From a virus (lineage: Duplodnaviria; Heunggongvirae; Uroviricota; Caudoviricetes), in IMG/VR virus record IMGVR_UViG_2734482538_000001: 16,669 bases of DNA; one strand, written 5' to 3'. A model generated the notes under the pieces. That model ran no database searches, was not told the origin of the DNA, and was given only the letters and a program-made list of their open reading frames with translations. The position numbers and the translations under genes are program-made. Positions 1,059-16,064 of the stretch are shown in pieces. Position 1 is the first letter of the stretch, and each line of letters begins with the position of its first letter.

Positions 1059-1158
1059 GATTATTTGACGTGGTTTGATGGCGTAGATGCACGTTGTGAC
1101 ATGTAGATGATAATTATTATCATTTTGCGGGTCCTTTCCGGCGATCCGACAGGTTACG
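1059..1158. other. Conserved lambda right-end segment immediately upstream of cosN (region containing cosQ)
   Basis: ttgattatttgacgtggtttgatgg...gcgggtcctttccggcgatccgacaggttacg closely matches the last ~100 nt of the lambda genome as I recall it. Confidence 0.6.
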
Positions 1159-1170
1159 GGGCGGAAGGCG
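1159..1170. other. cosN, the 12-nt cohesive-end core (variant sequence GGGCGGAAGGCG)
   Basis: Sits exactly between the conserved right-end flank (...caggttacg) and the conserved left-end flank (cgcgggttttcgctatttatg...), 178 nt upstream of the Nu1 start. Lambda cosN as I recall it is GGGCGGCGACCT. Confidence 0.6.
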
Positions 1171-1210
1171 CGCGGGTTTTCGCTATTTATGACAATTTTC
1201 CGGTTTAAGG

Positions 1211-1322
1211 CGTTTCCGTTCTTCTTCGCCGTAACCTAATGTTTTTATTTAAAACACCCCCTGAAAAGAAAGGAAACGACAGGTGCTGAAAACGGGCTTT
1301 TTGGCCTCTGTCGTTTCCTTTC
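1211..1322. promoter_or_regulatory. cosB: terminase small-subunit binding sites R3, R2, R1 with an A/T-rich IHF-type site (I1) between R3 and R2
   Basis: R3 cgtttccgttct at 1211-1222; R2 gaaaggaaacgacag at 1268-1282 and R1 ctgtcgtttcctttc at 1308-1322 form a perfect 15-bp inverted repeat; aatgtttttatttaaaaca at about 1238-1256. Arrangement matches lambda cosB. Confidence 0.7.
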
Positions 1323-1347: not shown

Positions 1348-1867
1348 ATGGAAGTCAACAAAAAGCAGCTGGCTGACATTTTCGGTGCGAGTATCCGTAC
1401 CATTCAGAACTGGCAGGAACAGGGAATGCCCGTTCTGCGAGGCGGTGGCAAGGGTAATGAGGTGCTTTATGACTCTGCCGCCGTTATAAGATGGTATGCC
1501 GAAAGGGATGCTGAAATTGAGAACGAAAAGCTGCGCCGGGAAGTTGAAGAACTGCGGCAGGCCAGCGAGACAGATCTCCAGCCAGGGACTATTGAGTACG
1601 AACGCCATCGACTTACGCGTGCGCAGGCCGACGCACAGGAGCTGAAAAATGCCAGAGACTCCGCTGAAGTGGTGGAAACCGCATTCTGTACTTTCGTGCT
1701 GTCGCGGATCGCAGGTGAAATTGCCAGTATTCTCGACGGGATCCCCCTGTCGGTGCAGCGGCGTTTTCCGGAACTGGAAAACCGACATGTTGATTTCCTG
1801 AAACGGGATATCATCAAAGCCATGAACAAAGCAGCCGCGCTGGATGAACTGATACCGGGGTTGCTGA

Positions 1868-1893
<26 letters not shown>
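1348..1893 (+). CDS. nu1: Terminase small subunit gpNu1
   Basis: 181-aa ORF MEVNKKQLADIFGASIRTIQNWQEQGMPVLRGGGKGNEVLYDSAAV..., near-identical to lambda Nu1, with an N-terminal winged helix-turn-helix. Overlaps the A start by 26 nt as in lambda. Confidence 0.95.
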
Positions 1894-5574
<3,681 letters not shown>

Positions 5575-10867: not shown

Positions 10868-11290
10868 ATGTTCCTGAAAACCGAATCATTTGAACATAAC
10901 GGTGTGACCGTCACGCTTTCTGAACTGTCAGCCCTGCAGCGTATTGAGCATCTCGACCTGATGAAACGGCAGGCAGAACAGGCGGAGTCAGACAGCAACC
11001 GGAAGTTTACTGTGGAAGACGCCATCAGAACCGGCGCTTTTGTGGTTGCGATGTCCCTGTGGCATAACCATCCGAAGAAGACGCAGATGCCGTCCATGAA
11101 TGAAGCCGTTAAACAGATTGAGCAGGAAGTGCTTACCACCTGGCCCACAGAGGCAATTTCTCATGCTGAAAACGTGGTGTACCGGCTGTCCGGTATGTAT
11201 GAGTTTGTGGTGAATGATGCTCCTGAACAGGCAGAGGACGCCGGGCCTGCAGAGCCTGTTTCTGCGGGAAAGTGTTCGACGGTGAGCTGA
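10868..11290 (+). CDS. G: Tail assembly chaperone gpG
   Basis: 140-aa ORF MFLKTESFEHNGVTVTLSELSALQRIEHLDLMKRQAEQ..., matches lambda gpG. Confidence 0.93.
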   Translation: MFLKTESFEHNGVTVTLSELSALQRIEHLDLMKRQAEQAESDSNRKFTVEDAIRTGAFVVAMSLWHNHPKKTQMPSMNEAVKQIEQEVLTTWPTEAISHAENVVYRLSGMYEFVVNDAPEQAEDAGPAEPVSAGKCSTVS

Positions 11291-15740: not shown

Positions 15741-16064
15741 NNNNNNNNNNNNNNNNNNNNNNNNNNNNNNNNNNNNNNNNNNNNNNNNNNNNNNNNNNNN
15801 NNNNNNNNNNNNNNNNNNNNNNNNNNNNNNNNNNNNNNNNNNNNNNNNNNNNNNNNNNNNNNNNNNNNNNNNNNNNNNNNNNNNNNNNNNNNNNNNNNNN
15901 NNNNNNNNNNNNNNNNNNNNNNNNNNNNNNNNNNNNNNNNNNNNNNNNNNNNNNNNNNNNNNNNNNNNNNNNNNNNNNNNNNNNNNNNNNNNNNNNNNNN
16001 NNNNNNNNNNNNNNNNNNNNNNNNNNNNNNNNNNNNNNNNNNNNNNNNNNNNNNNNNNNNNNNN
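15741..16064. other. Assembly or masking gap (324 N) covering the K 3' end, the K/I overlap and the I 5' end
   Basis: Continuous run of n. The track ORFs crossing it (15290-16096, 15724-16545) are read-through artefacts. Confidence 0.99.

Follow-up and report, generated by a model that had tools for sequence, protein, structure and literature searches.

What does it mean when a cos site is lambda-like on both sides of a nicking core that is not? In a 16,669-nt stretch of caudoviricete DNA (IMG/VR record IMGVR_UViG_2734482538_000001; hereafter the window), the 12 nt at 1159–1170 read GGGCGGAAGGCG, where lambda (NC_001416, bp 1–12) has GGGCGGCGACCT. A first-pass annotation had set this against the lambda core, counted five changes and proposed a packaging-impaired cryptic prophage, a natural cos-specificity variant with a different sticky end, or an assembly error. 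Alignment of the window to the lambda ends bore out both the lambda sequence given there and the count, as NC_001416 begins with that 12-mer and the two cores differ at positions 7, 8, 9, 10 and 12 only, all inside bp 7–12, with GGGCGG intact. The window therefore departs at 5 of 12 positions from the canonical cohesive end of lambda, 21 and phi80.

The core lies between ...CAGGTTACG on the left and CGCGGGTTTTCGCTATTTATG... on the right, is the single GGGCGG-N6-CGC site in the whole window and aligns with the 12 bp labelled as the cos site in a DE3/lambda record. On the plus strand, a CG dinucleotide at 1157–1158 adjoins the predicted top-strand nick (N2, between 1158 and 1159), followed by the left half GGGCGG at 1159–1164, identical to lambda, the variant right half AAGGCG at 1165–1170 (CGACCT in the lambda alignment) and a second CG at 1171–1172, to the right of the predicted bottom-strand nick (N1, between 1170 and 1171). 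The arrangement of conserved cosN bases, CG-GGGCGG......-CG, described in PMC4669245 is thus present at 1157–1172. The left CG is invariant in every cos site that we collected and the right CG is invariant in our alignments; the left half is kept in all but one of approximately 350 cos-like sites collected, the exception (L121) reading GGGCGA.

Five changes in six neighbouring base pairs compare with approximately 4% divergence in the rest of the cos region (binomial probability ~6e-7, by our estimate), which marks a block allele and not a run of independent point mutations. The calculated free energy of the sticky-end duplex is −17.8 kcal/mol for the window and −18.2 kcal/mol for lambda, and both ends have 10/12 GC. 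Rotational symmetry of cosN extends to 8 of 16 bp in the window compared to 10 of 16 in lambda, with the symmetric pairs 3/10 and 6/7 lost and the pair 4/9 gained.

The remaining cos elements proved to be as lambda-like as the first-pass annotation had stated, for the flanks, for R3, R2 and R1 and for the near-identical Nu1 and A genes. The cosQ heptamer GGGTCCT (1129–1135, plus strand), the packaging termination signal (PMC4669245), is an exact match, is conserved in all aligned cos sites and lies 23 bp upstream of the top-strand nick position, the same spacing as in lambda. Of the cosB elements, R3 (1208–1223, plus strand; lambda bp 50–65, coordinates per PMC9026076), the critical TerS binding site, is identical to lambda over its 16 bp. 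The I1 region between R3 and R2 (1224–1266, plus strand), which is the IHF site in lambda (PMC4669245), is collinear with five substitutions. Comparison with lambda places R2, as an inverted 16-mer (AGAAAGGAAACGACAG), at 1267–1282 on the minus strand and R1 (CTGTCGTTTCCTTTCT) at 1308–1323 on the plus strand. The full tripartite cosB of R3, IHF region, inverted R2 and R1 is therefore present and collinear with lambda save for a 1-bp difference.

That difference falls at about 1294–1296, between R2 and R1 (lambda bp ~136–137), where the alignment reads GCGAGGC versus ACG-GGC and the window is 1 bp shorter than the lambda reference; consequently Nu1 starts at cos bp 190 and not 191. The shorter R2–R1 length is common to the other natural prophages and DE3 in the alignment. 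We also observed an A-to-C change at 1193 in the weak IHF/spacer region between cosN and R3 (lambda bp 35). It occurs in 10 of 92 variant-core loci and is absent from the aligned relatives, and is a polymorphism of one sub-lineage.

Downstream, the window encodes adjacent Nu1-type TerS and gpA-type TerL genes with 98–99% aa identity to lambda. Nu1 (1348–1893, plus strand; 181 aa; Pfam Phage_Nu1, E 2e-101) differs from lambda at 3 of 181 aa, and A (1868–3793, plus strand; 641 aa), with its ATPase and endonuclease domains (Pfam GpA_ATPase and GpA_nuclease), at 4 of 641. The gpW protein is identical over all 68 aa.

Changes to cosN's right half have precedents. Feiss et al. (2015, PMC4669245) reported that differences at bp 7–12 are common in lambda-like phages, with N15 and phiD326 differing at positions 9 and 12 and Gifsy-1 at 8, 9 and 11, and that the left half of cosN, the nick-flanking CG dinucleotides and cosQ are conserved. 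In the same study, right-half mutations had a minimal phenotype and no measurable effect on cos cleavage; the symmetric change in the left half, G2C, cost approximately 10-fold, an asymmetry ascribed to anchoring of TerL by R3-bound TerS. Lambda TerL gave equal yields on cosN of lambda and of N15, and chromosomes with mismatched ends were viable, with approximately 4-fold lower yield/infectivity for two mismatches (PMC4669245). We note that tolerance was measured for single changes and for the N15 allele with its two changes, and not for five at once. A survey of natural cosN sites by Vahanian et al. (2017), as summarized in PMC9303873, found the first 4 bp and two flanking bp on each side to be conserved.

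Compared to lambda cos, the window is thus alike in cosQ and its spacing, GGGCGG, the flanking CG dinucleotides, R3/I1/R2/R1 and Nu1/A, and differs in the right half, at 5 of the 12 cohesive-end bases, and in the reduced symmetry given above. The N15/phiD326 core, for which we confirmed the N15 end as GGGCGGCGTCCG, resembles it in that change is confined to the right half and position 12 is G. N15 has two differences from lambda and a simple, R3-only cosB, whereas the window has five and the full lambda cosB; N15 cosN is cut by lambda TerL as efficiently as cosN of lambda (PMC4669245). The Salmonella phage Gifsy-1, by the description in PMC4669245, likewise combines several right-half changes with a conserved left half, but at other positions, with other bases and with its own cosB. 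The inferred cohesive end of mEp213/LLS, GGGCGGCGCGCT (PMC12315714), also has GGGCGG followed by a divergent right half; unlike the window, this allele, found 12 times among the IMG/VR cos-like sites scanned, accompanies non-lambda head genes and an unrelated TerS of ~162 aa that shares 20% identity with Nu1.

To cover sites with a different conserved left flank, we scanned IMG/VR with CCTGCCACG-N12-CGCGGG (loci L224–L333). In approximately 105 of the matches the lambda-type right flank TTTTCGC is missing, and some of these are clearly chance hits; many, however, are cos-like sites of other lineages that contain GGGCGG, and the analysis was restricted to these. At least 12 right halves were recovered, all after GGGCGG: AAGGCG (20), CAGCGG (13), CGCGCT (12), CGGCAT (9), CTGGCT (4), GAGCGG (4), CGACCT (3) and others. 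Many of the CCTGCCACG-GGGCGG+N6-CGCGGG sites are linked to an unrelated small terminase of ~162 aa (MDQEIA.../MDGELK..., ~20% identity to Nu1). The CCTGCCACG-type sites constitute a wider family of lambda-like cosN with hypervariable right halves.

We then asked how widespread the AAGGCG core is, using as the query a 40-mer across the core that is unable to seed on canonical sites and that replaced a 61-mer matching both alleles. The exact 40-mer was found at 166 places (150 chromosomal and 16 plasmid) in complete E. coli genomes, spread over 155 of the 5,426 and with ETEC H10407 among the carriers. It is also present in 23 PLSDB plasmids, of about 46 kb in most cases and belonging to E. coli, E. 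fergusonii, E. albertii and Shigella sonnei, and in two phage records, PhiR46_1 and YDC107_1. Among GTDB species representatives there was one true match, Escherichia sp. E1V33; eight further matches in GC-rich, unrelated genomes were taken as chance. A scan of IMG/VR with an exact 21-mer yielded 78 loci with the variant site. Over 13.8 kb, one of these (L166, IMGVR_UViG_2667527914_000011) matches the window at 100% identity, and presumably the window derives from it; the site is also found in another IMG/VR genome (L204), whose identity to the window is 99.8% over 11.8 kb. The nearest match among complete genomes, E. coli 582, has the same core and differs in nearby SNPs. Recurrence in many complete genomes with different flanks rules out an assembly artefact, and private decay with it: what we see is a population allele.

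The 61-mer, which matches either allele, hit 5,525 places in 3,455 complete E. coli genomes, so that the variant makes up approximately 3% of such sites. An allele-blind IMG/VR sample of 120 loci with lambda-type flanks held 115 canonical cores, three AAGGCG cores and two single-base variants, and we found no intermediates between CGACCT and AAGGCG among the sampled sites. Rare single-base cosN variants on lambda-type flanks (PhiR70_1, which is L007, and L274, L079 and L121) comprise GGGCGGAGACCT (C7A, whose A7 is shared with the AAGGCG allele), GGGCGGCGACCG (T12G) and GGGCGACGACCT (G6A, in the left half). One metagenomic viral contig of 56,122 bp, IMGVR_UViG_3300045988_113976, carries two variant cos copies (L174 and L182) and could be a longer-than-unit-length assembly or contain tandem elements. 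The exact 12-mer GGGCGGAAGGCG was absent from the searchable full-text literature apart from one unrelated plant paper, the Vahanian et al. survey lying outside that search.

The variant core occurs with many left-flank haplotypes and with three cosB/TerS types. The adjoining TerS proteins comprise a lambda type (with a ...SIRTIQNWQE helix), a ...DPRTIERWQS type, exemplified by ETEC H10407, which we take to be phage-21-like, and an N15/Monarch-like type (L071). The canonical core is found with the same three cosB types, which indicates that the core allele is uncoupled from packaging specificity. The window itself is mixed: its left flank and core are those of the 582/APEC haplotype, while its cosB side is of a haplotype that elsewhere accompanies the canonical core (UTAK-15); the first SNP that tells the haplotypes apart lies 59 bp to the right of the core. 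This mixture shows that the allele has moved between backgrounds, either by ordinary recombination in the conserved flanks or by end-heteroduplex resolution, a route demonstrated for N15 and lambda (PMC4669245).

Among the carriers are N15-like linear plasmid prophages of about 46 kb with telL/telR and ParA/ParB (L334, which is PhiR46_1, PV340565.1, and L008, L136 and L137). They have a complete lambda-type Nu1-to-J module and a tripartite lambda-type cosB, not the simple cosB of N15. E. coli 582 has a chromosomal lambdoid prophage whose Nu1 is the same protein as theirs (WP_000453567.1); integrated prophages and phage-plasmids have therefore exchanged their packaging and morphogenesis module.

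To see whether the nuclease varies with the core, we compared 73 lambda-type gpA sequences, of which 43 lie beside variant cores, 29 beside canonical cores and one beside another core. Four distinct gpA proteins are 100% identical beside both cores, as are four distinct Nu1 proteins. No residue of the gpA nuclease domain (322–600) tracks the core allele among the lambda-type gpA sequences compared; the strongest association, a frequency difference of 0.36, is N-terminal, at aa 9 and 21. Terminase and core thus do not co-vary, and the gpA of the window is only 2 aa from gpA proteins beside canonical cores.

Two of the differences between window and lambda gpA, L404R and T466I, fall in the nuclease domain near conserved acidic residues; presumably D401, E408 and D465 of lambda gpA are catalytic. 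A literature search for lambda gpA D401 returned papers on T4 gp17. L404R is rare: of 72 gpA sequences of lambda type, 3 have it, each beside a variant core, and 40 of the 43 variant-core loci lack it; R or K at this position occurs in diverged gpA homologues. T466I is common and found with both cores, and I at 466 also occurs in N15 gp2 and diverged gpA.

From Nu1 through L, the window aligns at full length and with 81–100% identity to the annotated morphogenesis proteins of PhiR46_1. The tail genes K and I are interrupted solely by a run of 324 N at 15741–16064, where the homologous interval in PhiR46_1 and E. coli genomes measures approximately 381–383 nt; the run, whose length is thus wrong, reflects a gap in the assembly or masking, and it accounts for the artificially long K (268 aa) and I (273 aa) reading frames in the ORF list. 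We had considered K/I as a divergent segment and rejected this, the stretch being a run of N, which limits how far the completeness of the prophage can be judged. At 11266–11272, at the end of G, the window has the slippery heptamer GGGAAAG of the lambda G-T frameshift, as expected of an intact tail-assembly chaperone pair. Nu1 and A are both intact in 46 of the 52 variant loci that extend far enough downstream.

Not all copies are functional. In E. coli C11 (L135, NZ_CP010133.1, 4347415–4353454), lom and a tail-fibre gene come directly after the variant cos, and the recT and lysozyme genes upstream of it are truncated; the locus is clearly a deletion remnant in which cos was kept and the terminase and head genes were lost. 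No phage record in the collection searched starts at the variant core, and PhiR46_1 was deposited in the plasmid-prophage layout, telL to telR. Our literature searches found no paper describing the PhiR phage series, and we therefore count PhiR46_1 as a deposited phage record and not as proof of virion ends.

These observations allow the competing readings to be weighed. An error of sequencing or assembly at a terminal or repeated site might be suspected from the draft-like source contig, with its N run elsewhere, and from the multiple copies of cos in many E. coli genomes (up to 7–9 places). Yet 155 complete genomes, each assembled independently, and 23 plasmids share the 12-mer while differing in flanking SNPs, and it stands again in the near-identical L204, so we regard the assembly error proposed in the first-pass annotation as practically excluded. 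Inactivation of cosN by the five changes, leaving a packaging-dead cryptic prophage, would fit the number of altered right-half positions (five of six), the loss of the symmetric pairs 3/10 and 6/7, the E. coli C11 remnant with cos fused to lom, and the lack of virion ends among the phage records in the collection. A dead site should decay randomly, however, and the block is identical at 166 E. coli places with varied flanks and three TerS types. It is carried, moreover, in four species by N15-like phage-plasmids of ~46 kb that presumably travel as virions, its adjoining terminase genes are mostly intact, the head and tail genes of the window are full-length apart from the N run in K and I, and right-half changes are tolerated experimentally (PMC4669245). 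The suggestion of a packaging-impaired cryptic prophage is therefore not supported, and we consider a dead site very unlikely.

A similarly low probability attaches to a distinct cleavage specificity, in which a nuclease co-evolved for AAGGCG and neither enzyme would cut the other's site. The discreteness of the allele, with intermediates absent among the sampled sites, and the L404R and T466I changes of the window gpA would accord with it. Against it, gpA proteins that are the same residue for residue serve both cores, nuclease-domain residues do not track the core, L404R is missing from nearly all variant-core loci, T466I accompanies both cores and N15 gp2, and lambda TerL shows no cosN specificity toward the N15 right-half variant (PMC4669245). 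Of the earlier proposal of a natural variant with a different sticky end, the natural variant stands, as the core recurs in hundreds of genomes, plasmids and phage records, while the changed terminase specificity does not: identical gpA and Nu1 proteins are found beside either core, and lambda TerL is insensitive to right-half changes (PMC4669245).

We therefore favor, with a probability of approximately 85%, the interpretation that the window contains a working lambda-type cos site carrying a common natural allele of the cosN right half. It fits the pattern of natural right-half variants, in which the left half and CG flanks are intact, the right half is changed and no matching terminase change is seen. 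The allele, previously undocumented in our search, is an addition to the documented right-half variation, and is ordinary rather than a defect or an error.

For such a working site, we propose that Nu1 dimers would bind R3, R2 and R1 and IHF would bend I1, holding gpA over cosN. The top-strand nick made by gpA would then fall at 1158/1159 and the bottom-strand nick at 1170/1171, with sequence reading probably limited to the GGGCGG left half and the flanking CG dinucleotides. The bottom-strand nick, which adjoins cosB, would be set by the Nu1–R3 anchor independently of bp 7–12, and reduced cosN symmetry should then matter little, in line with the published evidence. The resulting virion ends would be 5′-GGGCGGAAGGCG on the left and 5′-CGCCTTCCGCCC on the right, and would anneal about as stably as lambda ends. 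The nick positions, the actual overhang and the packaging competence of the window prophage are predicted here by analogy with lambda. From the distribution of the allele and the intactness of the adjoining genes, we infer that AAGGCG sites are cleaved and packaged at normal efficiency, the available experiment covering the N15 allele only.

Between a window end and a lambda end, 7 of 12 bases would pair (6 of them contiguous), with a mismatch next to the bottom-strand nick, and chromosomes with such hybrid ends should be poorly infectious. The right half could then be a compatibility label and not neutral sequence, with the majority allele favored by positive frequency-dependent selection and AAGGCG representing a second, largely end-incompatible group that spread as a 12-bp unit. 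We offer this as an unlikely speculation. Such selection would explain why lambda-type sites are nearly dimorphic (115/3/2 in the 120 loci) despite the indifference of the terminase. If it is true, AAGGCG would spread through end heteroduplexes or short-homology recombination over lambda-, 21-like- and N15/Monarch-type packaging modules.

For biology at large, the finding is of small importance. It supports the published view that only cosN's left half and the flanking CG are read by lambda terminase, and it adds to the known variation a frequent allele with five differences, at approximately 3% of lambda-type cos places in complete E. coli genomes. A mild puzzle is why lambda-type sites should be close to dimorphic if bp 7–12 can vary freely, for which frequency-dependent selection on end compatibility is a possible explanation. 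In practice, cos finders and terminus predictors that match GGGCGGCGACCT will miss such prophages and N15-like phage-plasmids, and the DNA of variant-core phages should anneal poorly to lambda ends.
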